Shown here piece after piece: positions 3,942 through 60,276 of a stretch of DNA of 64,000 nt. Position 1 is the stretch's first letter. Every line of letters starts with the position of its first letter. The translations under genes were made by a program, and so were the position numbers. This DNA comes from an uncultured Clostridia bacterium (GTDB lineage Bacteria; Bacillota; Clostridia; Christensenellales; UBA1242), in contig CALWFB010000001.1 in NCBI GenBank assembly GCA_944377485.1, positions 12,138-76,137 on the forward strand, given 5' to 3'. Below the pieces are notes generated by a model. That model was not told the origin of the DNA and did not search any database. It worked only from the letters and a program-made list of their open reading frames with translations.

Positions 3942-4065
3942 AAAATGATTTTACCACATATAAAAATTTCAAACAACAAAATAAAAATATTTCATAAAAA
4001 ATTGTCATTTAATTTAAAAATTTGTTTTAAACGTAATTTTTCAACAATTAGTATAAAAATGCAAA

Positions 4066-4365
4066 ATGTCCGCACTTTCACAGGACGAATCTCGAAGTGG
4101 GAATAAAAAAATGACCGCCTAATAGGTCAATAATTACGCAGTAATTTGACAAAAGGGCGATTTATAATATAGGGCTCCCACAAGTGTCGTAAGATACGCA
4201 GTGGAAATAGCGAAGCAACTGCTTGATTGTGATGTTTTACATTCATTAAAATATAGGGCTCCCACAAGACGAATGTCGAAGTGGGAAAAATGGAGCGACC
4301 GATTATAAACTCACTGTTGCAATTTCTTTTGAAATTGCGGTGAGTAAAAATCGAGTCACTCCATC
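4066..4365. repeat. three tandem copies (A0, A1, A2) of a structured interspersed repeat, abutting the 3' end of tRNA-Ser(GGA)
   Basis: Hairpin module TCCCAC-(short inner hairpin)-GTGGGA at 4076-4102, 4176-4206 and 4260-4286. A1 and A2 both start ATATAGGGCTCCCACAAG. Confidence 0.6.
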
Positions 4366-4453
4366 TGGCGCAGAGAACAGGATTTGAACCTGCGGATGCT
4401 TTCACATCACACGATTTCCAATCGTGCTCATTCGACCGCTCTGACATCTCTGC
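4366..4453 (-). tRNA. tRNA-Ser(GGA)
   Basis: 88 nt. Acceptor GCAGAGA/TCTCTGC, anticodon loop TTGGAAA, long variable arm. CCA is encoded. Confidence 0.9.
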
Positions 4454-4461
4454 ATGCGGTT

Positions 4462-4490
4462 ATTATATAATAAAAAACTAAAATAATCAA
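4462..4490 (-). promoter_or_regulatory. promoter of tRNA-Ser(GGA)
   Basis: Reverse strand TTGATT-17 nt-TATAAT, 8 nt upstream of the tRNA 5' end. Confidence 0.6.
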
Positions 4491-7373: not shown

Positions 7374-10300
7374 TTGCAAATCGAAGCATTACTAAAATCC
7401 AATAAAAGACTAGCCCAAGACCTAGAAGACTACGAAATGCAAATCACGAAATTAGAGCATCAACGTGAATTATACGAAATGCAGGTTCCAGTGCACTATT
7501 TGTACAATGAGGATAATATAATCTATGGATTTGGCAAAACTGCGAATGAAGACATCTTCCGCTTAATTCTAATCACCGATTCATATGAAAATTCAATATT
7601 TATCAATTACTCCTCATCCGAAAGCAACCAAATCACCAGCATCATTGATTCAGCGGAAAAGAGCATTACTTTCAACTACGACAGCCAGTTGAGGCTATCG
7701 AGCATAATTGATGCACGAGATAGAGAAATTTCATTTGCATATGTTAACAATCTTTTAACGACAATCACCTACCCTGATAAAACTATCAGTCGCTATTTCT
7801 ACGACTCAGACAACAAGATGATAGCGATAATAGACCAATCAAATATGGGTGCATATTTAGAATATTCGGACAATCAAATCAAGGTTCAAGCGCTCTCCGC
7901 ACTAAATTCTATCAAGCATAACCAGCCAGATTATCAAAAGGTTCTAGACTCGACCACTCTGACCTCTTATTTAATCGACAATTCATATCTCACAATCCAA
8001 TTTTACGACTGCAAAACCACCCACGTCAAAAATGCAAAGGGCAAGACCGTAGTCTATGTATTCAACAATCAAGGACAGGCAATCAATATATACGAAGATA
8101 GTTCTTCCCTGGATTCAGACAACACTAATGTACTGTCCAGACAATACTCTTACACAGACAAATTGCTGTCCGAATCAATCACCACCCTTCCTTATGCCAG
8201 AAATTATTTAGACGGTTCATGCTTCGACACAAGTATAATCTCACAGATTCCAGCACTCTACACTGGCAATATAATCGTCAGTGAAAATGCTTATTCAATC
8301 CCAAGTTTCATCAAAACAGCCTCCTGCGTTCACACTTTCACAGGCGACTTTCAGTCCGCTTCAATCTCAATGAGTGAACTAAATATTAGCGAACTAAACA
8401 CACAACTGACCTCAAAAAAGATTGAAAATATGGTACTCACCGGTTGGGCAAAGGCAAATTCCGCTTTCGTAAAGAATCCAAATGTGGCTGACAAATTTAA
8501 TGACGAAGAAATATCCTACCCAAGTTATATAGACAATAGGAAATTCGAACTTCGCATTTCAATCAAATATTCGGACGAAACCGACCCTCAAATTCTTTCA
8601 AAACAATTTGATTGGATGAACACCGAGTGGCAATATTGCTCTCTTCCTATCAAATTGAAACCAAAACAAATCGAATCCATATCTTGCTATTTCGATTATT
8701 CCAACAATACTAATACAGCCAACGTTCAATTCACTGATTTAGAGTTGCGTGAAGGTAGTTGTGAATCAAGGCATTATGACGATGAAAGCAAACTCATCAA
8801 ATCTGAATCTTCCACTTCTTTCACTCTCTACACCTACGACTCTGATGGCAATCTAATGAGCGAAACCACCCGTCTGATTCATGACGAAGACGATAAAGAA
8901 TTTATCACAACCTACGAATACAACAAAAACAACAAATTATTAAAAACCATCGACTATAATGGTATCATCACAGAAAATGTATATAATGACAAAGGTGTAG
9001 TGACGAAAACTTTGACCTACCATATCAATGAACCTACTCGCAAATTCTATTCCGAAACCCCAACTGACGAAAAAGGCAACACCACAGCTAGCGTAAACGA
9101 ATTTGGCGAACCTCTTGCTAATTATGAGTACATTGATGGCACAGGCATAATCTCTACCGAAACCGACCCTCACAACAACAGAACCTCGTACGCCTACGAC
9201 TCTAATGACACTCTAATCGGCTTAACCAGCACTGTCAATGGCGAAGAAAACACCAATATCTATGGCTACACCCTCACCTTTTTGACCTCGCTTAAACACA
9301 ACGACTTTGAATACAACTATGAGTATGACAACCTAGGCAAACTTAGCAAAATCTCCATTGCAGGAAACGAGTATCTATCTAAAACGTATGCTTATCAAGA
9401 TAATGACTCCATAGAACATGATAGCGAAACCACCACGTACAAGAATGGTGCAACGTTCAAGCAAATTCTCAATGATGACGGCAATGCCACTACTCTTGAA
9501 TATAACGGCAACACTATTCTAGAAAATATCTACAATTCGCTTGGCAATATCATTCAATCTACTGATATGTCAAATGATGAAAATAATATTCACAAGTATT
9601 ATTATGACAAATTTGGCAATCTGTATAGAGAAACCAACACTCAGCACAATACTAATGTTGAATTCGAAAACACTCTCAATCTTGACACAAATCAGCTAGA
9701 TGAGTCCACTATCAAATTAGGTAATGACACTTATCGCTACAATTATTCTTATACCAACAAACTTGACTCCACCATTTCTAATTTGTCTTTAACTAAATTT
9801 ACTAACTCAGATTCTTCCACAGCGCAAACCACCCCAATCTTTGAATCAAATATCAGTTATGATAGACTTGGTAGAATCTCAGAAATCGTTCAAGGTATAA
9901 ATCGTAAACAATATCACTATCTATCCAGTGGAGACCATACGTCAAATCTCATTTCTAGTGTTTGGTATGGTGACAATCTTAAACTTAGTGAAAACTATAA
10001 ATATCGCTATGACGAAAAAGGTAATATCCTAGAAATCCGAGAAAACGGCACTCTAATTGCTCGTTATAAGTATGATAGTTTATCTCGTCTAATCAGAGAA
10101 GATAACAAATCATTCAACAAAACCACAACCTACGACTATGACGCCGGTGGAAATATAATATGTAAAAATATATACAACTTCACACTAGTTGAAAATCTAG
10201 ATTTTGAGACCATTCAGTCTACAATTCCTTATTTATACAAATCTACTGGCTGGCGTGACCAATTAGTTTCATATAATGGCGAAACCTTTACTTATGACGA

Positions 10301-11558
10301 AATTGGTAATCCAACTAAATATAGAGATAAAAACTTATCATGGTCACACGCTAGACAGCTGGATAGTTTCGGAGATATTGCAAGTTTCAAATATAATGCT
10401 AATGGTATTAGAATCAGCAAGACCGTAAATGGTATTACAACTAAATATTATTTAAACGGAAATAAAATCATATCTCAAACTGATGCTACCAATACTCTAT
10501 TCTTCTATTACGGAACAGATGGTATTACAGGCTTCAACCATAATGGAACTGATTATTTATATAAGAAAAATATTCAAGGTGATATAATTGGAATCTATAA
10601 TCCAGAGAACAAGTTAATATGTAAATATATCTATGACGCATGGGGAAATCACGTTTGTCGAATTTTGTCGAATAATGGAGAATACGTTGACATAGTAGAT
10701 ACAAGTAATTATAATATTAATAGCAATTATATAACTATTGCTAACTTAAATCCTTTCCGCTATCGTAGTTATTACTATGATACAGAGACAGGACTATATT
10801 ATCTTAATAGTAGATACTATGACCCACAAACTGGAAGATTCATTAATGCAGATGCTATTTCCATAATTGACATCTCTCAAATAACTATTAATGGATTAAA
10901 TCTTTATTCTTATTGCTTAAATAACCCAGTTAACCAAATTGACGAAAATGGTTATATCGTTGGCTGGCTATTGGCTATAATTGTTGGCTCGATTATCGGA
11001 GCAACGGTGAATACTGGTTTTGAAGTGGCTAATCAAGTAAAAAATCATGGCTGGGATTTAGAAAACTGGAATTGGACTCAAATAGGATTGTCTTTTTTAG
11101 GCGGTGCAGTTTCAGGAGCCATTTCAGCAATTCCTGTTCCTGGATTTCAGACTTTCGGTATTTGGGGTAAAGTTTTTCATTATGGATTAACTTTTGTTAT
11201 TGGAGGTATCGGAGCTGTTGCAGGAGGCTTAATAGATGGTTCTGTCTATAATATCAAAAGTGCTTTTACAAATTTTGCTATTGGTGGAACTTTTAGTTTA
11301 TTTGCTGATTTATTTACAAATGGATTAAATAATATTGTTCAAAAATATTCAAACAATGTTTTAACAAATCCTTTATATGCTAATATGACTTTGGAAGACT
11401 TAATTGGTAGTGGTTTGAAAGAATATCCAAAACATTTAGCAAAATTAATGAATAAATTATCGCGTGCAATATTATATGCAAACAGAGGATTAACCAAATC
11501 TATATTTTATATGATTGGAATAAATTCAATTTTAGAAATCATTTCTGGTTTGCTATAA
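7374..11558 (+). CDS. RHS/YD-repeat toxin protein, apparently 5'-truncated (frame open from 7062 with no upstream start codon)
   Basis: Dozens of YD repeats (YDxxGN, YxYD). Core end YDAWGN...NPFRYRSYYYDTETGLYYLNSRYYDPQTGRFINAD...LYSYCLNNPVNQIDENGY, then a 200-aa variable C-terminus. Only a TTG start at 7374, with no SD. Confidence 0.85.
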   Translation: MQIEALLKSNKRLAQDLEDYEMQITKLEHQRELYEMQVPVHYLYNEDNIIYGFGKTANEDIFRLILITDSYENSIFINYSSSESNQITSIIDSAEKSITFNYDSQLRLSSIIDARDREISFAYVNNLLTTITYPDKTISRYFYDSDNKMIAIIDQSNMGAYLEYSDNQIKVQALSALNSIKHNQPDYQKVLDSTTLTSYLIDNSYLTIQFYDCKTTHVKNAKGKTVVYVFNNQGQAINIYEDSSSLDSDNTNVLSRQYSYTDKLLSESITTLPYARNYLDGSCFDTSIISQIPALYTGNIIVSENAYSIPSFIKTASCVHTFTGDFQSASISMSELNISELNTQLTSKKIENMVLTGWAKANSAFVKNPNVADKFNDEEISYPSYIDNRKFELRISIKYSDETDPQILSKQFDWMNTEWQYCSLPIKLKPKQIESISCYFDYSNNTNTANVQFTDLELREGSCESRHYDDESKLIKSESSTSFTLYTYDSDGNLMSETTRLIHDEDDKEFITTYEYNKNNKLLKTIDYNGIITENVYNDKGVVTKTLTYHINEPTRKFYSETPTDEKGNTTASVNEFGEPLANYEYIDGTGIISTETDPHNNRTSYAYDSNDTLIGLTSTVNGEENTNIYGYTLTFLTSLKHNDFEYNYEYDNLGKLSKISIAGNEYLSKTYAYQDNDSIEHDSETTTYKNGATFKQILNDDGNATTLEYNGNTILENIYNSLGNIIQSTDMSNDENNIHKYYYDKFGNLYRETNTQHNTNVEFENTLNLDTNQLDESTIKLGNDTYRYNYSYTNKLDSTISNLSLTKFTNSDSSTAQTTPIFESNISYDRLGRISEIVQGINRKQYHYLSSGDHTSNLISSVWYGDNLKLSENYKYRYDEKGNILEIRENGTLIARYKYDSLSRLIREDNKSFNKTTTYDYDAGGNIICKNIYNFTLVENLDFETIQSTIPYLYKSTGWRDQLVSYNGETFTYDEIGNPTKYRDKNLSWSHARQLDSFGDIASFKYNANGIRISKTVNGITTKYYLNGNKIISQTDATNTLFFYYGTDGITGFNHNGTDYLYKKNIQGDIIGIYNPENKLICKYIYDAWGNHVCRILSNNGEYVDIVDTSNYNINSNYITIANLNPFRYRSYYYDTETGLYYLNSRYYDPQTGRFINADAISIIDISQITINGLNLYSYCLNNPVNQIDENGYIVGWLLAIIVGSIIGATVNTGFEVANQVKNHGWDLENWNWTQIGLSFLGGAVSGAISAIPVPGFQTFGIWGKVFHYGLTFVIGGIGAVAGGLIDGSVYNIKSAFTNFAIGGTFSLFADLFTNGLNNIVQKYSNNVLTNPLYANMTLEDLIGSGLKEYPKHLAKLMNKLSRAILYANRGLTKSIFYMIGINSILEIISGLL

Positions 11559-13518: not shown

Positions 13519-13595
13519 TGGTGCGTCCAGAGGGATTCGAACCCCCGACCTTTGGTTCCGTAGACCAACGCTCTATCCAGCTGAGCTATGAACGC
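13519..13595 (-). tRNA. tRNA-Arg(ACG)
   Basis: 77 nt. Acceptor GCGTTCA/TGGACGC, anticodon stem TTGGT/ACCAA, loop CTACGGA. CCA is encoded. Confidence 0.9.
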
Positions 13596-13616
13596 ATATA
13601 TGATTATTAAGATAAT

Positions 13617-13751
13617 TACTTACGTGACCGAATGAGGAACCAAAGGTCACAATGGGTCCCACCAGACGAATGTCGAGTGGGAAGAGGAGCAACTAACCGA
13701 AAAAGGCTACATTTGCGTTCAGCAAATTGCCAAGAGTGCTAGTTGCGACGA
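13617..13751. repeat. structured interspersed repeat, copy B, bracketed by a 63-nt direct duplication
   Basis: TCCCAC-CAGACGAATGTCGA-GTGGGA (13657-13682). Then stem GCAACTA/TAGTTGC enclosing hairpin GGC-TAC-ATTTGC-GTTCA-GCAAAT-T-GCC. Confidence 0.6.
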
Positions 13752-13793
13752 GGTTCCGTAGACCAACGCTCTATCCAGCTGAGCTATGAACGC
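13752..13793 (-). pseudogene. duplicated 5' half of tRNA-Arg(ACG), through the anticodon loop
   Basis: 13752-13814 is identical by eye to 13554-13616 (63 nt: tRNA positions 1 to ~42 plus 21 nt of upstream flank). Confidence 0.85.
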
Positions 13794-13965
13794 ATATATG
13801 ATTATTAAGATAATAATTGAATATATAGATATTTTTCAATCAATGCACCTTAATTCTAACGTTTTTTATTATATCATAAAATTTTTTTTAATGCAAGACT
13901 TTATTTAAAAATAGTTAATTAAAATAAAAAAGTCTAAATTTTAGACTTTTAATATATCAAACAAA

Positions 13966-16547: not shown

Positions 16548-16557
16548 TCATAAAAAA

Positions 16558-16573
16558 TGTTCCACGTGGAACA
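16558..16573. promoter_or_regulatory. parS site 1 (also forms a terminator-like hairpin after parA)
   Basis: Perfect palindrome TGTTCCACGTGGAACA flanked by an A-run and a T-run. Confidence 0.85.
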
Positions 16574-16790
16574 TTTTTTTGATTTTATTAATTATAAAAA
16601 CAATTTTTTTATACAACTAAGAATTTTAATAGACGAAATATAAATATGTGATTATTTTATTTATATTTCGTATAATAAAAGGTGTTTATTAATTTAAATT
16701 TATATATCATAATATTAATCTTCTTTTTACTGTATTATATTTATTTAATTTTGTAATAATTAATATTCTACAAATTAAAGTCACAGTTAA

Positions 16791-16806
16791 TGTTCCACGT
16801 GGAACA
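16791..16806. promoter_or_regulatory. parS site 2
   Basis: Perfect palindrome TGTTCCACGTGGAACA. Confidence 0.85.
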
Positions 16807-16902
16807 ATTTTTACATTAATAAATAAAATTTTGGATAAGTTTATAAAATTTACAATTATTATTTGACACGCAATTAAATATGTATTATAATTAATATATA
16901 AA

Positions 16903-24445: not shown

Positions 24446-24691
24446 TTAAATATCTTCTCTTCCTAGAAGATAATCTGTCGTCACTCCAAAATACTCAGCA
24501 ATTGCAACTAATGAATCAATTTGAGGAGAACGAATTTTTAAAAGCCAACAATTAATGGTTGATTTAGGTATATTTATCTTTTGAGATAATTGCGCAATAC
24601 TTAAAGATTGAAAATTCATTAACTCCTTTAAACGATTAGCAAAAATTGTTAAAATATCTTTTTTATTCAAATCAAAAATATTATCTTTCAT
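24446..24691 (-). CDS. XRE-family helix-turn-helix protein (81 aa)
   Basis: LSIAQLSQKINIPKSTINCWL HTH. Ends TTDYLLGREDI like its paralog. Confidence 0.8.
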   Translation of the reverse strand: MKDNIFDLNKKDILTIFANRLKELMNFQSLSIAQLSQKINIPKSTINCWLLKIRSPQIDSLVAIAEYFGVTTDYLLGREDI

Positions 24692-24770: not shown

Positions 24771-24977
24771 TTATATATCTTCTCTTCCTAGAAGATAGTC
24801 AGTTGTCACATTAAAATAATCTGCTAATTGGACTACTGCATCTATTTTAGGTAATCTTGTTTTCAGTAGCCAACAGCTAATTGTTGACCTAGGAATATTG
24901 ACATTTTTGGCTAACTGTACAATATTCAAAGATTTGAACTCCATGAGTTCACGCAATCTCTCAACAAAAACATTCAT
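24771..24977 (-). CDS. XRE-family helix-turn-helix protein (paralog; start at ATG 24977 or TTG 25010)
   Basis: LNIVQLAKNVNIPRSTISCWL HTH. C-terminus TTDYLLGREDI. Confidence 0.8.
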   Translation of the reverse strand: MNVFVERLRELMEFKSLNIVQLAKNVNIPRSTISCWLLKTRLPKIDAVVQLADYFNVTTDYLLGREDI

Positions 24978-47624: not shown

Positions 47625-48980
47625 TTAATATTTTAACAATTGAGATTTAATATCATTTACAAGTGTTCTAATATGTGGATTTATTTTTACTTGATTACTA
47701 ATTTTATCTCTTGCATGCATAATAGTCGTATGGTCTCTTCCTCCAAATATTGCACCAATTGCAGTAAGTGGAATGCTAAGCATATCGTTTATTAAATATA
47801 TGCACAACTGTCTTGGTTCAACAATTTCTTTATTTTTTTTCTTTCCAATCAAATCTTCTTTCGATACTTTGAAGAAATCACATACGGTATTTAAAATTTT
47901 CTCTGCATCGAGATTTGTTTTTTCTGTCTCTCCATAATCTTTAAGTGCTTCGTGAGCATCTTCCATAGAAGCATGTGATTTTCCAAGCAAACTTGAATAA
48001 AATACCACTTTTGATAATATTCCTTCCATCTCACGAATATTAGTTCCTGTCTTTTGTGCTATAAAATCTACTACATCTTCGTCAACAAGATATCCCTCTT
48101 GACTACATTTTTTCTTAATAATTGCTACCTTAGTTTCATAATCAGGCTCTTGAATATCTTGAATAAGCCCACTACTGAATCTACTACGTAATCTCTCTTC
48201 TAATGAACTCATCTCTTTTGGTGAACGGTCAGAAGCAATTATAATCTGTTTATTGTTTTGATATAAATCATTGAATGTATGGAAGAATTCTTCTTGAATT
48301 CCCATTTTGTTGCTAATGAATTGAATATCATCAATCATTAACACATCTACACTACGATATTTATCTCTAAAATCGAGATTTGATTTATCTTTTCCACTAC
48401 GGATAGAATCTACATAATCATTTGTGAATTTTTCACATGTCACATAAAGTACGTTTAAATCAGGTCTATGTTTGTTTAAATAATTACCAACTGCATGCAA
48501 TAAGTGTGTTTTACCAAGTCCAACACCTCCATAAATGAATAATGGATTAAATTTTTCACTAGGGTGTTCCGCTACACTCTGCATAGCTGCACATACTACT
48601 TGATTTGATTTTCCTACTACAAAGTTTTCAAATGTATATTTTTGATTAAATTTGGACTTAAAGTTATTTGAATCTTTTTCACTCATCATTCGCTCTAATT
48701 CTTCATCTTGTTTTCTAATAGATTCTTCATATTCCTGATTGTCTGTTATTCGAACGAATGTATATGGTGTAAACTCTTGTCTAACACATTTTGTTATTTT
48801 TTCATATATAGCAGGTTGATTAACTTGATTTTTCGCTGTAATACTAGGTGCTTTTAATATTAATTCATCATTTGCATATTGAATTGGCGTCAAGGTATTT
48901 ATCCATAAATCAAAGGTGACAGCGGTCACTTCGTTTTCTAACTTATTCAATACCTTTTTCCATTGGTCAAGTAAAAACAT
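47625..48980 (-). CDS. dnaA: chromosomal replication initiator protein DnaA
   Basis: Walker A GGVGLGKTHLLHA, MIDDIQF. C-terminal DNA-binding domain FGGRDHTTIMHA. Confidence 0.95.
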   Translation of the reverse strand: MFLLDQWKKVLNKLENEVTAVTFDLWINTLTPIQYANDELILKAPSITAKNQVNQPAIYEKITKCVRQEFTPYTFVRITDNQEYEESIRKQDEELERMMSEKDSNNFKSKFNQKYTFENFVVGKSNQVVCAAMQSVAEHPSEKFNPLFIYGGVGLGKTHLLHAVGNYLNKHRPDLNVLYVTCEKFTNDYVDSIRSGKDKSNLDFRDKYRSVDVLMIDDIQFISNKMGIQEEFFHTFNDLYQNNKQIIIASDRSPKEMSSLEERLRSRFSSGLIQDIQEPDYETKVAIIKKKCSQEGYLVDEDVVDFIAQKTGTNIREMEGILSKVVFYSSLLGKSHASMEDAHEALKDYGETEKTNLDAEKILNTVCDFFKVSKEDLIGKKKNKEIVEPRQLCIYLINDMLSIPLTAIGAIFGGRDHTTIMHARDKISNQVKINPHIRTLVNDIKSQLLKY

Positions 48981-49219
48981 ATACCACTCCTCAATTTTTG
49001 TTGCTATTATTATATAATAAAAATAATATTAAGTCAATTAGCAAATCAAAATTAAATTAAAGGTTTTGTTTGTTGTTTTTTATGATTGGCACTGTATTTT
49101 AAAATCAGTTTTCATGACATAATTATTGTTTAGTCAATCAATCTCTTTGAAAAATGAAAAATACGAAATATTCTAATAAATTTTTTATTGGTACTGAAAT
49201 ATTTGTTCTCTATGATGAG

Positions 49220-49365
49220 TTATACACATTGAAATTTGGGTTATCAACATAAATATACACACATTTAGTCACATTTATTGTGGATAAAAATAGTATGAAT
49301 TTTGTCGAATTATGACAGAATCACCACTATATATTGAATTAAATTAAGTTGTCCACTTTTCCACA
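49220..49365. promoter_or_regulatory. DnaA boxes in the dnaA-dnaN divergent intergenic region
   Basis: TTATACACA 49220, TTATCAACA 49241, perfect TGTGGATAA 49279, TTTTCCACA 49357. Confidence 0.7.
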
Positions 49366-49522
49366 TTCACTAATAAAAAAATCACTATCAAAAAACAAAA
49401 AAAATTAATAAAAAAACTACACGTGCACGCACGCATATAATGCGCATAAAATACTATTTTATAGTATTTTTCTTTGATTTAATTAATAGAAAAAATTTTT
49501 CGACAAAAGTGTAAAAATTTAT

Positions 49523-49551
49523 TTGACATATCTAGGCTCGTTTGCTAATAT
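49523..49551 (+). promoter_or_regulatory. promoter of dnaN
   Basis: TTGACA-17 nt-TAATAT. About 90-nt 5' UTR to ATG 49645. Confidence 0.6.
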
Positions 49552-49644
49552 AGTCATGTATCATTAGATGGAATGCGAGCAATTTCACGTGGTACAGATG
49601 ATATTGAGGGGGAAGTATTATCGTGGTATGTTAAGGAGTCTATT

Positions 49645-50742
49645 ATGAAATTTAGATGTGATGGTTTAGAATTGAGCGAAGCAATTAGTACAGTATCAAA
49701 AGCTATTAGTTCAAAGACTACTTCTCAAATACTTGAAGGAATTAAGATGGTATGTGAGAATGACTTGCTTATACTTACTGCTACTGACCTTGAAATGAGT
49801 ATTGAAAAGAGAATTCGAGCAGAAGTTGATTCTCGTGGCGAAACAGTTGTGCCAGGTAGATTATTTGGCGAATACATAAAAAAGCTAACTAATGAACAGA
49901 TTGAATGTGAATTGAATGAAAAAAATCAGTTAAAAATTTCGTATACAGACAGTGAAGGCTGTTTACAATGTATGGAAATTAGTGAATTTCCTGCAATTAA
50001 AGAAGTTAATAAGGATAATTTCTTTGAAATCACAAAAGAAGATTTCAAAGCTTTAATAAATAATGTTTTCTACGCAGTAGCACAAGATGATAGTAGACCA
50101 ATTTTGAAAGGAATATTGTTAGAAACTAATCAAAATACGATTAAAGCAGTGGCTGTGGATGGTTGTAGATTGAGTATTTCTAATAAAAATCTTGTTATGA
50201 GTACAACAGATTTTAAAATCATTGTTCCAGGAAGGAATCTTAATGAAATTGTTAAGATGATGAATGGCGATGATAATGTGAAAATCTATGTACATTCAAA
50301 CAACATAATGGTAGATTTGGGTGATACGATAGTAATCAATCGTTTGATTGATGGGCAATTTATTAATTATCGTCAGATTGTTCCAAAGGATTTTTCAACA
50401 ATTGTCACCATCAACAAAGAGCAATTAGAAGATGCTATTGATAGAGCCAGTGTACTTTCTCGCATTGACAAAAATAATTTAGTAAAATTTGACATCAAAG
50501 AGAAAAATTTGATGCTTACGTCAAATAGTGAAATAGGTAATACACGTGAAAATATTACAGTAGGAGTAAAAGGTAATGATTTAAACATTTCGTTTAATTC
50601 TAAATATTTTAGTGATTGTTTGCGTGTGATTGATAATCCATACGTTAAGATGAACTTTAATAGTCAGATTCAACCTTGTGTAATAACTCCATGTGAAGGT
50701 AATGATTTCTTATTTTTGATTTTACCTGTAAAAGCTAGATAA
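49645..50742 (+). CDS. dnaN: DNA polymerase III beta sliding clamp
   Basis: Start at ATG 49645 (MKFRCDGLELSEAIS) after AAGGAG. About 365 aa, clamp family. Confidence 0.9.
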   Translation: MKFRCDGLELSEAISTVSKAISSKTTSQILEGIKMVCENDLLILTATDLEMSIEKRIRAEVDSRGETVVPGRLFGEYIKKLTNEQIECELNEKNQLKISYTDSEGCLQCMEISEFPAIKEVNKDNFFEITKEDFKALINNVFYAVAQDDSRPILKGILLETNQNTIKAVAVDGCRLSISNKNLVMSTTDFKIIVPGRNLNEIVKMMNGDDNVKIYVHSNNIMVDLGDTIVINRLIDGQFINYRQIVPKDFSTIVTINKEQLEDAIDRASVLSRIDKNNLVKFDIKEKNLMLTSNSEIGNTRENITVGVKGNDLNISFNSKYFSDCLRVIDNPYVKMNFNSQIQPCVITPCEGNDFLFLILPVKAR

Positions 50743-53763: not shown

Positions 53764-53974
53764 ACAAGTTTTATACATACCATTATTGCGACTAAGTCTT
53801 ATAGGAACCCAAACAATGCAAATAAAATGAGCAATTTAACATAAAAGCGAGAAATTCTTAAATTAAACCTTTTAAACAGGAAAAGAAGTAATGAAGGAAA
53901 ACGCATGTTGTCCTTCATAAAAGCGAGTAATCAAGCAAAAGACTAAAATTGCGCTAGCAATTTAGTAATAGCAA

Positions 53975-54086
53975 AATAGGAATCCTGCGAGACGAATGTC
54001 GAGTGGGAAAGAGGAACGACCGAACAAAAGGCTTACATTCGCATAAACTTCGTTTAGCGAATTAGCAAAAGTTCGAGTTGTGACGT
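53975..54086. repeat. structured interspersed repeat, copy C, abutting the 5' end of tRNA-Leu
   Basis: TCCTGC-GAGACGAATGTCGA-GTGGGA (53983-54008). Then stem ACGAC-CGAAC/GTTCG-a-GTTGT enclosing hairpin ATTCGC...GCGAAT. Confidence 0.6.
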
Positions 54087-59787: not shown

Positions 59788-60039
59788 ATGATAGAATTTA
59801 GATATGATACACAACTATTAATTGAAGGGAAAAATTTAGATGAAGATAAAATTAGAGAGTATTTTACAAAGAATTTTAAAGGAGATTGTCTGATTGCTGT
59901 TGGTGATAGTGAATTAATTAAAATTCATTTTCATACAAATGAGCCATGGGACGTTTTGAAATATTGTGCTACTCTTGGCGAAATCTGTGATATAGTTGTC
60001 GAAGATATGGATAGACAATCAAGAGGCCTGAAAGGATAA
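59788..60039 (+). pseudogene. fragment of a DAK2-fusion YloV-like protein (83 aa)
   Basis: GDCLIAVGDSELIKIHFHTNEPWDVLKY...VVEDMDRQ resembles an internal YloV module. Far shorter than full-length YloV. Confidence 0.5.
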
Positions 60040-60166
60040 TAATATCTTCGACAACTAAGGGGGTCCCCACATGTGATGAAAATCACTTGAAGGGGAGGAG
60101 GAGCAATCAAGCAATAGACTTGGAATGCGATATAGAGCATTCAAGTAATGGTGAAGATTGCGATGC
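60040..60166. repeat. structured interspersed repeat, copy D, bracketed by a 34-nt direct duplication
   Basis: TCCCC-ACAT-GTGAT-GAAA-ATCAC-TTGAA-GGGGA (60064-60096), then GGAGGAGCAATCAAGC as in copy B, then hairpin CTTGGAATGC...GCATTCAAG. Confidence 0.55.
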
Positions 60167-60276
60167 AAGATATGGATAGACAATCAAGAGGCTTGAAAGG
60201 TTAATTATTTTGTTAATCGCATATTATTAAACTTTCTAAATTTTGGTTTTGCTTTTTAATAGGGATAAGGAAAAAT

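Follow-up and report, generated by a model that had tools for sequence, protein, structure and literature searches.

We describe here a family of short structured repeats from a 64,000-nucleotide stretch of the genome of an uncultured Clostridia bacterium (contig CALWFB010000001.1, positions 12,138 to 76,137 of the forward strand; assembly GCA_944377485.1), referred to below as the window and numbered from its first nucleotide. The repeats belong to a genuine family, as yet unclassified, of two-hairpin elements ~100 nt in length, carried by Christensenellales-like gut bacteria. We consider it probable that they are non-autonomous, nucleic-acid-guided, site-specific mobile elements, made up of a copy of a host segment (S), a guide and a two-hairpin core, which would be inserted seamlessly by a putative enzyme acting in trans. 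A preliminary description of the window had recognised the repeats and their pairing; the features that define the family beyond that account are duplications of host sequence that flank the elements, a guide complementary to the insertion junction, and the position of two copies, B and D, inside a tRNA gene and a coding gene, respectively. The related material that we compared with the window comprises loci labelled L001-L189, ~440 kb read in total.

Six copies had been proposed on the strength of a first hairpin module (H1), and all six H1 modules are present where they had been placed (A0, 4076-4102; A1, 4176-4206; A2, 4260-4286; B, 13657-13682; C, 53983-54008; D, 60064-60096). Whilst this part of the proposal stands, only A2, B, C and D are full units; a seventh, partial copy resides at 53891-53966, and beyond these there are no further copies in the window. 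Searching with the pattern GACGAATGTCGANGTGGGA, with up to three mismatches allowed, gave four matches where 0.02 would be expected, a number which none of 100 shuffled sequences reached. The second module (H2) is likewise real and forms, together with H1, a covariance model (R1) whose matches are B, C, D and A2 within the window and 30-odd others in the related loci. The compensatory pairing claimed for the family is borne out in 35 distinct matches, where 83.8% of cells pair compared with 66.1% in shuffles (none of 500 as high) and 33-46% when the partners are slid; both sides change in 22 of 24 pairs and the covariation score is 0.346 compared with 0.140, figures which lean towards the structure because the alignment was fitted to the model, though the margin is large. 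The change between B and C, from ATTTGC/GCAAAT to ATTCGC/GCGAAT, is as previously described, and a whole stem is replaced in the L008 copy at the same tRNA-Leu site as copy C, where H1 reads CCATC/GATGG rather than TCCCAC/GTGGGA.

When ten divergent copies were folded as single sequences, one common architecture was obtained. H1 consists of an outer stem of 5-6 bp, a small internal loop and an inner hairpin, often with a GNRA loop, and is followed by a purine-rich linker (AGAGGAG) and then by a long, irregular H2, whose closing helix reaches the 3' end (...GTTGCGACGAG). Linker and tail form Watson-Crick pairs in A2-type units (GGAG/CTCC), and in type 1 units (GAGGA/GACGAG) they could form tandem G.A pairs; the 3' tails of the cores read ...GACGA(G), ...GACGTG, ...GACGCG or ...GCGATG. 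No copy matches Rfam 15, which agrees with the family having been called unclassified: at gathering thresholds only eight tRNAs were found, and at relaxed thresholds (E<=5-10; 3950-4480 and the whole window) nothing fell on the copies.

The geometry of the repeats and the guide gives the occupied sites the order L-S1-x-g-core-S2-R, in which L and R are the flanks, S1 and S2 are two copies of the host segment, x is a spacer and g, the guide, is the reverse complement of the end of L (l) plus the start of S (s). Copy B displays this order within a gene for tRNA-Arg(acg). Its target on the plus strand (13547-13559; l GACCTTT followed by s GGTTCC) is the exact reverse complement of 13636-13648, and the junction, between 13553 and 13554, falls between tRNA-Arg positions 41 and 42. 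S1 (13554-13616) contains the 5' half of the tRNA and 21 nt of leader and completes the functional tRNA-Arg gene (13519-13595, minus strand). Next comes the left arm of the element (13617-13648), comprising x (13617-13635) and the guide GGAACCAAAGGTC (13636-13648), which lies partly within a hairpin GTGACC/GGTCAC. The core (13652-13751, plus strand; 79.5 bits with the covariance model) is built from H1 (13657-13682), the linker AGAGGA (13683-13688), H2 (13689-13746) and the tail GACGA (13747-13751). S2 (13752-13814), the displaced partial tRNA-Arg 5' half and leader, forms a perfect 63-nt direct repeat with S1 and runs on into the native region upstream, with its predicted promoter (13839-13810, minus strand). 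The guide is exact over 13 nt (7 nt of l and 6 nt of s), and none of 5000 shuffles of the 30 nt before H1 was as good. Among loci that encode an identical GtrA protein, copy B occupies the site in the window, L157-160 and L166, and L161-163 lack it. The empty alleles have a single tRNA-Arg and a single leader, and the difference is exactly 198 nt, corresponding to a 135-nt element and the 63-nt S. Such presence/absence polymorphism within species supports one alternative raised in the preliminary description, that of a small mobile RNA element, as far as mobility goes; RNA is only one candidate for the active form, given that copies occur in both orientations relative to local transcription.

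The sole predicted promoter for tRNA-Arg (13810-13839, minus strand) is situated upstream of the displaced S2, so that occupied strains must transcribe the tRNA through the partial copy and the antisense element and then process it out. A comparable arrangement is seen in L001 (1836-2084; metagenome-assembled genome (MAG) CALWPK010000009), where a partial tRNA-Lys (positions 1-41) is followed by a 128-nt insert in minus orientation and by a full tRNA-Lys. The core of this insert is different and not of type 1, and the insert contains CCCGGGACAC, the reverse complement of the T-stem immediately 3' to where the duplication ends; its geometry is like that of copy B and the insertion lies at the same tRNA position, between 41 and 42.

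Copy D has the same organisation in a protein-coding gene. Its junction, between 60001 and 60002, falls within a Glu codon of a FakA-like_M gene (59788-60039; Pfam), 13 codons ahead of the stop, and the plus-strand target (59993-60008; l TAGTTGTCG followed by s AAGATAT) is the exact reverse complement of 60042-60057. S1 (60002-60043, plus strand) supplies the last 12 codons, the stop and 4 nt, and is now the functional end of the gene. The guide ATATCTTCGACAACTA (60042-60057) is exact over 16 nt (9 nt of l and 7 nt of s; 0 of 5000 shuffles as good) and leads into the core (60058-60166; 61 bits), which contains H1 (60064-60096, with a GAAA loop), the linker GGAGGA, H2 (60103-60161) and the tail GATGC. 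S2 (60167-60208), which with S1 makes up a pair of 42-nt repeats, is the displaced native gene end with its reading frame intact. Copy D is absent in L167, which has a clean empty site, and is present in nine others (L168-176). S2 is continuous with the native downstream region and shares the single-nucleotide states of the empty allele in L167, both having GG(C/T)TTG and GGTTAATTAT, whereas S1 in the window species has GGCCTG or GGACTG, and GGATAATAAT; in two strains S1 has been partly converted towards S2.

At the D site the relationship between guide and target can also be followed across species. Three other species have the site empty (L143-146, L147-150 and L179) and four have it occupied, by cores of very different sequence. 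The window copy D pairs the target AAGATAT with the guide ATATCTT; in L188 the target AAGACA faces TGTCTT, which lies inside a 13-nt exact complement; and in L151 and in the first unit of L177 (L177-E1), which belongs to the same element lineage, the targets GTTGTC and GTAGTC face GACAAC and GACTAC, respectively. The guide thus changes along with its target in three species cases. The L188 guide, like those of B and D, was equalled in none of 5000 shuffles, and the exact guides of all three span the junction and end 1-5 nt before H1, whilst in six units the guide's l part, of 6-9 nt, stops 1-7 nt short of H1. With the short 'beta' guides of L151 and L177-E1, the junction dinucleotide (G followed by A) is left facing GA. 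A second unit in L177 (L177-E2) has a guide, ATATCTTCAACAACA, with two mismatches to its own host and a match of 15 out of 15 to an L179-type junction (TGTTGTTGAAGATAT), which, going by the sequences, fits an origin in another species.

L177 is also informative about S, since it holds two different units in tandem and three copies of S. The middle copy (S2) differs from S1 and S3 of the same locus at 10-11 of 38 positions and from the L143 allele at 5, and its translation retains the conserved peptide apart from one amino-acid change. Decay cannot account for ten differences that are mostly synonymous, and the L177 S2 must therefore have been imported as coding sequence with its element. In every case the distal end of S lies just beyond the functional gene: in copy D and L151 it falls a few nt past the stop, in L001 at the tRNA +1 position, and in copy B within the -10 region of the tRNA-Arg promoter. 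Judged by these comparisons S is carried cargo and no target-site duplication. L188 has two units where its sister strain L189 has one, followed by the relic of an older guide: the decayed stretch downstream of the two units (4200-4300) contains CCTTCGACTAC, a guide-like complement of the GTAGTCGAAGG-type target seen in L177, which suggests that the D site has been invaded repeatedly from different donors.

These comparisons also bear on several other explanations for the duplicated segments and the guides. Target-site duplication by staggered cuts or by target-primed reverse transcription (LINE/SINE-like or Cas1-like) was rejected, as S2 of L177 is a foreign coding allele and the window S1 differs from the empty allele. 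An RNA-guided nuclease that homes by break repair, in the manner of TnpB/IscB, is disfavoured, as the l-s junction remains intact in the occupied allele. The guide might in principle be a by-product of insertion (fold-back synthesis, P-nucleotides or copying of tRNA RNA), and this is contradicted both by a geometry that is constant relative to the element rather than to host transcription and by the 33-76 nt between the guide and its complement.

In the mechanism that we propose, the mobile unit would comprise S, that is, the host sequence just downstream of the insertion point, followed by a short variable spacer (x), g and the ~100-nt core. The unit would go seamlessly between l and s, its carried S restoring the interrupted tRNA or protein gene whilst the recipient's own S is pushed downstream as a relic. 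The half of the guide next to H1 (3') would pair with l and the distal half (5') with s. As the s of S2 follows the 3' end of the core, the guide could align l and S2 side by side for seamless excision, and for insertion it would likewise align the 3' end of the element and the target bond for cutting and joining. The L-S1 junction recreates the target, so that further units can insert upstream and produce tandem stacks in which the older members decay; such stacking and decay would explain arrays such as A0-A1-A2. The origin of S may lie in an element that first occupied a gene boundary, as A2 and C still do, and captured the flank when its guide later shifted into the gene body. No candidate for the enzyme turned up near the copies in the window or the related loci; it must act in trans. 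The likeliest chemistry would be single-strand 'peel-and-paste' by an HUH/Y1-type transposase, as in IS200/IS605, with a guide lengthened from 4 nt to 13-16 nt.

We lean slightly towards such a single-strand mechanism at the level of DNA over one involving RNA, because copies lie in either orientation relative to transcription, copy B is antisense to its neighbours with no promoter predicted for it, and S of B extends past the predicted start of tRNA transcription. Weighing against this preference are traits of an RNA-like character, namely GNRA loops, tandem G.A pairs and a conserved terminal G. One could accordingly imagine the plus-strand transcript S-x-g-H1-H2 as a small intron-like or retro-homing RNA, either a ribozyme or a ribonucleoprotein, whose guide would resemble a group I internal guide sequence (5'-[3' exon pairing][5' exon pairing]-3') or the exon-binding (EBS)/delta sequences of group II. 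Its conserved 3'-terminal G would attack the l-s bond as in reverse splicing, and fixation in DNA would need reverse transcription. The guide does have the exact order and continuity of a P10/P1 guide across the junction, the terminal G does adjoin s, and S1 and S2 start alike, just as the 5' ends of group I introns and their 3' exons both pair with the guide in textbook accounts. The GUAA and GAAA loops of H1, the tandem G.A of CGAGC/GCGAG in H2 and the purine-rich linker and tail would also suit an RNA, and copies at tRNA 5' ends could be released with an exact 3'-OH by RNase P. Set against this, the ~100-nt core has none of the conserved catalytic elements of group I or II and no Rfam match, the base before the junction is G, T or A rather than the U of the group I U.G wobble, and no reverse transcriptase was seen in the sampled loci. 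Copy B and array A are antisense to every neighbour, there is no predicted plus-strand promoter for B, the only promoter predicted there drives the opposite strand, and S1 of B reaches ~11 nt beyond the predicted tRNA-Arg transcription start. An RNA-level element is, in our estimation, rather unlikely, though of the explanations other than a guided DNA element it is the one that we take most seriously.

The contacts with tRNA genes that had been pointed out are real: A2 meets the 3' end of tRNA-Ser (4366), C meets the 5' end of tRNA-Leu (54087), and B is 26 nt from tRNA-Arg and adjoins the partial tRNA-Arg copy. Copy C (53978-54086, plus strand; 87.9 bits) comprises H1 (53983-54008; UCCUGC/GUGGGA, with G.U pairs) and H2 (54016-54081), and its 3' end adjoins the 5' end of tRNA-Leu(cag), which runs in the same direction. 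It is nested at or after the 3' part of a partial resident unit upstream of the tRNA (53891-53966, plus strand), in which H1 (ATGAAGGA..TCCTTCAT, 53891-53918) is followed by AAAAGCGAG and H2 (53927-53966); the same resident unit is found upstream of tRNA-Leu genes in L001 and L008. Copy C has neither a duplication of S nor a recognisable guide, and its locus showed no polymorphism in four strains. Units in the same orientation as the tRNA end at, or one base before, the mature tRNA 5' end at 54086/54087, in L008 (3481/3482) and in L001 (1835/1836), and cutting by RNase P at these positions would free an upstream RNA ending ...GACGA-3'OH. Elsewhere in the related MAGs, units are arranged in tandem, inverted or nested, for example within the H1 loop of another unit.

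Array A is stacked against the gene for tRNA-Ser(gga) (4366-4453, minus strand) and consists of three units on the plus strand. A0 (4066-4169) has a degenerate H1 (TTTCAC/GTGGGA) and a 'type 3' second module with a hairpin TGACC..GGTCA (4112-4129) and an inner hairpin (4132-4146), and blocks homologous to it are found in L013 and L147. In A1 (4170-4253) the inner stem of H1, GUGUC/GAUAC, is capped by a GUAA loop, and the second module is short. A2 (4254-4365) is a full unit with H1 at 4260-4286 and H2 at 4290-4364 (covariance model match 4255-4359, 27.4 bits); its linker ATGGAG pairs by Watson-Crick with the 3' tail CTCCAT, and its 3' end meets the 3' (CCA) end of the convergent tRNA-Ser(gga). 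In strain L182 A1 is missing through an 84-nt indel bounded by a 23-nt direct repeat (4162-4184 and 4246-4268) that corresponds to the H1 5' halves of A1 and A2, which fits unequal recombination between tandem units. A0-A1-A2 is an array of partly decayed units which is itself polymorphic, and homologous stacks occur by tRNA 3' ends in L147, L013 and L151. Neither A0-A2 nor C has S or a recognisable guide; such units either have intergenic boundary targets that need no repair patch, together with decayed guides, or reflect an additional, guide-independent mode of spread.

On the minus strand, the reverse complement of the A0 hairpin (4112-4129), TGACCGCCTAATAGGTCA, scores together with a T-run as an intrinsic terminator for the tRNA-Ser transcript, which would then cross the reverse complements of A2 and A1 before stopping. 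This resemblance to a terminator is one of the points that could be made for a host-beneficial repeat of the REP/BOX kind, serving tRNA operons as terminator, processing signal, RNA stabiliser or protein-binding site and spreading by recombination or duplication only, with no dedicated transposition. The clustering at tRNA genes in positions kept across species (downstream of tRNA-Ser, upstream of tRNA-Leu and tRNA-His) points the same way, and unequal recombination does explain the A1 indel. One would not expect such a repeat to sit within a tRNA gene or a coding sequence and to come with duplications that make up for the interruption, nor would it account for a single site that holds different lineages in different species and is empty in others, for a foreign S allele imported with one unit, or for the nesting of copies in both orientations with no consistent orientation relative to transcription. 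We regard this explanation as the most improbable of those considered, and the resemblance to BOX/REP repeats that had been remarked upon is a loose one only.

Two further observations may concern elements of a more classical type. In L147 (1-1500) and L013 (6160-7877), arrays homologous to A0-A2 end against TGGTGCGGAT..., the reverse complement of a tRNA-Leu-like 3' end, and the next feature is the 3' end of a gene for a large serine recombinase (Resolvase/Recombinase/Zn_ribbon_recom); the array edge may here be the boundary of an integrated element. In L035 (contig ERZ780079 NODE-14, 50% GC), 64-nt direct repeats (2108-2171 and 2307-2369), which span the T-loop/acceptor end of tRNA-Leu(gag) through its terminator, surround a 135-nt insert that has no recognisable guide and no type-1 core and looks like a classical att-type remnant. 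A type-1 unit on the same contig (4870-4975, minus strand) separates a T-box terminator from the start of thrS, and a 9-nt inverted repeat (CACGGCCGC/GCGGCCGTG) flanks it.

The family might on such grounds be seen as miniature integrase-dependent, CIME-like elements, in which S1 and S2 are the attL/attR identity blocks of a tyrosine or serine recombinase, the guide is incidental, and the core is the remnant of an arm of a larger island, mobilised in cis or in trans by a resident integrase. Gene-end or tRNA repeats that flank an insert and restore the gene are indeed the classic integrative signature of the textbooks, and tandem accretion is generally known for integrative elements; the serine recombinase gene by the arrays in L013 and L147 and the guide-less insert with its 64-nt repeats in L035 would also be in keeping. 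This view would leave unexplained why the junction recurs as an exact inverted copy of 13-16 nt in a constant position 5' of H1 and why such copies co-vary with the target in three species pairs, and the same covarying two-hairpin core occurs at unrelated targets. Furthermore, S of B is a tRNA 5' half plus leader, the 41/42 position is no usual integrase sublocation, there is no integrase gene near B, C or D, and serine recombinases neither need nor leave long identity blocks. We therefore think such an origin improbable, if marginally less so than a host-beneficial repeat.

Returning to guided, non-autonomous insertion, several observations weigh against it and need to be considered alongside those that we have presented in its favour. 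No transposase, reverse transcriptase or nuclease gene lies beside any copy in the window or the related loci when searched with Pfam and NCBIfam, the one exception being the large serine recombinase beside the two arrays in L013 and L147. Most copies lack a recognisable guide or S (A0-A2, C, L008 and a tRNA-His site), these being the copies that adjoin tRNA ends or are nested in other copies, and the guides of the beta lineage are only 6-7 nt long, with 85-295 of 5000 shuffles as good. The known end hairpins of IS200/IS605 are far simpler than H2, and the 40-90 nt that separate the cleavage site from the guide greatly exceed the spacing in IS608. In the window every copy is on the plus strand, with A and B to the left and C and D to the right of dnaA/dnaN (~48-50 kb); the same strand on both sides misfits a simple lagging-strand-template rule, a comparison that involves four loci only and an unmapped origin. 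The counts of G.U and A.C pairs, 17 and 18, do not settle which strand is active. Finally, deletion between S1 and S2 could also give rise to empty alleles, and each polymorphism may thus have run in either direction.

The closest mechanistic analogue would seem to be the guide-directed choice of sites in IS200/IS605. In IS608, 4-nt guides, each placed 5' of the base of a subterminal hairpin, recognise the cleavage sites CL and CR (TTAC and TCAA) and the target by pairing, and in vitro the element can be retargeted by engineering the pairing to 12 or 17 nt (PMC5934647). The position of the l part of the guide in the present units, 1-7 nt before H1, is in keeping with such a scheme, as is the interaction of the linker 5' of H2 with the 3' tail. 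As in IS200/IS605, PATEs and REP/REPIN-RAYT systems, the units described here are small and strand-specific, with subterminal hairpins (H1 on the left, H2 at the 3' end) and no terminal inverted repeats. As in IS200/IS605, they are inserted seamlessly 3' of a specific sequence which stays in the left flank and pairs with a guide just 5' of the left hairpin, albeit in a geometry much more extended than that of IS608; there is no true target-site duplication, the empty alleles being exactly L-S-R; and the enzyme would be supplied in trans, as for the non-autonomous copies of those elements. The differences are considerable. The guide spans both sides of the junction with 13-16 nt, compared with 4 nt, and is separated from the cleavage site by 40-90 nt; H2 forms a long hairpin with multiple loops; a functional copy of the host segment that was displaced is carried at the left end; each lineage is specific for one site; and there is no Y1 transposase or TnpB in the sampled DNA, the Y1_Tnp and OrfB families being absent from the window and the related loci. 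The architectural features of IS200/IS605-type non-autonomous elements that could be tested are nevertheless present, and tested features of Rfam families, group I and II introns, bridge-RNA systems, MITEs (miniature transposable elements with inverted repeats) and attC sites are lacking; we place the family among guide-directed non-autonomous mobile elements.

The last of these comparisons deserve some detail. Like group I and group II introns (P1/P10; EBS pairing with intron-binding sites (IBS), and delta-delta'), the units have a contiguous internal guide that pairs with both flanks, a conserved terminal G by the downstream flank and a tendency to home to conserved genes, including tRNA genes. 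Unlike group I introns, they have neither the P3-P9 catalytic core with its G-binding site nor a U.G pair at the 5' junction, and no Rfam Intron_gpI match; unlike group II introns, they have no six-domain structure with domain V, no 5' GUGYG and no reverse transcriptase in the loci; and unlike either, their orientation is independent of host transcription and it is a duplicate carried along, not splicing, that restores the gene. With the bridge RNA/seekRNA of IS110/IS1111 they share a guide in a non-coding end that sets target and junction in site-specific insertion. Bridge RNAs have guides split between two internal loops and accompany their own DEDD recombinase gene, whereas here a single contiguous guide lies outside the hairpins, the internal loops are small, conserved and A-rich, and there is no open reading frame (ORF). 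Integrative elements of tRNA genes, CIMEs and XerCD-dependent IMEXs similarly bring a replacement gene part, flanking direct repeats and tandem accretion; the present units differ from CIMEs and IMEXs in measuring 135-190 nt only, in having no recombinase gene, in that the duplicated part may be a tRNA 5' half, and in their co-varying internal guide.

BOX, REP and Correia repeats and MITEs resemble the family in being short, structured, modular, multi-copy, often intergenic, and tandem or nested. The units described here have no terminal inverted repeats or short, fixed target-site duplications, their flanking repeats being 38-63 nt long, variable and carried, and they combine single-site specificity through a long guide with a cargo of host gene segment. 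In integrons, the attC consensus has R''/R' boxes of the form RYYYAAC ... GTTRRRY, and cassettes, which form co-oriented arrays, are delimited between G and TT. H2 does contain GCAAC...GTTGC, but in contrast to attC/CALIN the unit extends another 6-7 nt, to GACGAG, and has the host s at its start, and H1 has no counterpart there. The sharply conserved 3' end at the flank recalls the scaffold-guide junction of the TnpB/IscB omega-RNA, whereas there is no tnpB or iscB in the sampled loci, and an intact L-S1 junction would be a self-target for the nuclease. Retrons, diversity-generating retroelements, T-boxes, the hammerhead, hepatitis delta virus and hairpin ribozymes, tRNA-like heads, CRISPR and TIGR arrays were all rejected on architecture or on the Rfam results.

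How far the system goes beyond what has been described is a matter on which we are more cautious. It is conceivable, though we hold it only tentatively, that a natural programmable system for seamless insertion is at work here, in which a ~100-nt scaffold and a contiguous 13-16-nt guide, as RNA or single-stranded DNA, would direct a putative enzyme to join the 3' end of the element to one exact phosphodiester in conserved genes. With similar reserve, we suggest that such a system may carry a 'repair patch' so that insertion costs the host nothing, a strategy which, like the guide architecture, would be undescribed for any transposon, intron or recombinase family. That the chemistry itself is new we find possible but doubtful, to much the same degree. 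If the guide does set the site, then tiny non-coding elements would home by long base pairing to single conserved positions, as seen at tRNA position 41/42 and at a conserved codon 13 codons from the stop, with the damage neutralised by the carried gene end. This could explain the pile-up of structured repeats at tRNA genes in these gut bacteria and would represent either a natural counterpart of the engineered long-guide IS608 or a new chemistry of guided recombination. It would also be of interest for genome-insertion tools, and the hunt for the partner enzyme would become directly testable. For annotation, partial duplicates of tRNA genes or gene ends that lie beside such units should be taken as insertion signatures and not as assembly errors.

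Regarding the distribution of the family, a scan of the genome collection found the H1 motif outside the window only in 'uncultured Clostridia' MAGs; of the 22 loci returned, the four Clostridia MAG loci are real. A metagenome scan with GTGGGARGAGGAGCRAC returned 120 loci, nearly all of them chance or coding matches, with only L142 and L035 real, whilst the three matches in the viral collection were all due to chance and blastn against plasmids gave no match. Searches of the literature found such elements nowhere described.

The window itself has ~29% G+C and contains ordinary chromosomal genes and eight tRNA genes; dnaA, dnaN, rpmH, rnpA and yidC are close to the locus. Identical proteins locate it on a 276-kb scaffold from a human-gut metagenome (ONAT22-1_SAMEA6814443 scaffold_22), and for a protein encoded nearby the closest named relative comes from a Christensenellales MAG. 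The genes after the tRNA-Arg locus differ among strains (L158/L159 compared with L157), and the neighbourhood is thus variable. A gene for a 1394-aa RHS-repeat protein (7374-11558) sits in a stretch with a G+C of 0.33-0.38, compared with ~0.29 elsewhere in the window. Two other repeats occur in the window: a 200-nt direct repeat of ~70% identity (24446-24645 and 24771-24970, 325 nt spacing), which is unrelated to the element family and overlaps an 81-aa ORF (24446-24691, minus strand), and the palindrome AATGTTCCACGTGGAACATTTTTT, which occurs twice (16556-16579 and 16789-16812, 233 nt apart), the pair having the look of terminators that work in both directions or of a palindrome bound by a protein. 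Synteny with L143 and L151 identifies the 451-aa ORF (minus strand) and the 389-aa ORF (plus strand) at 47625-50742 as dnaA and dnaN, respectively. Their divergent arrangement is unusual for Firmicutes-type origins, and the cumulative GC skew reaches its minimum between ~40 and 50 kb.

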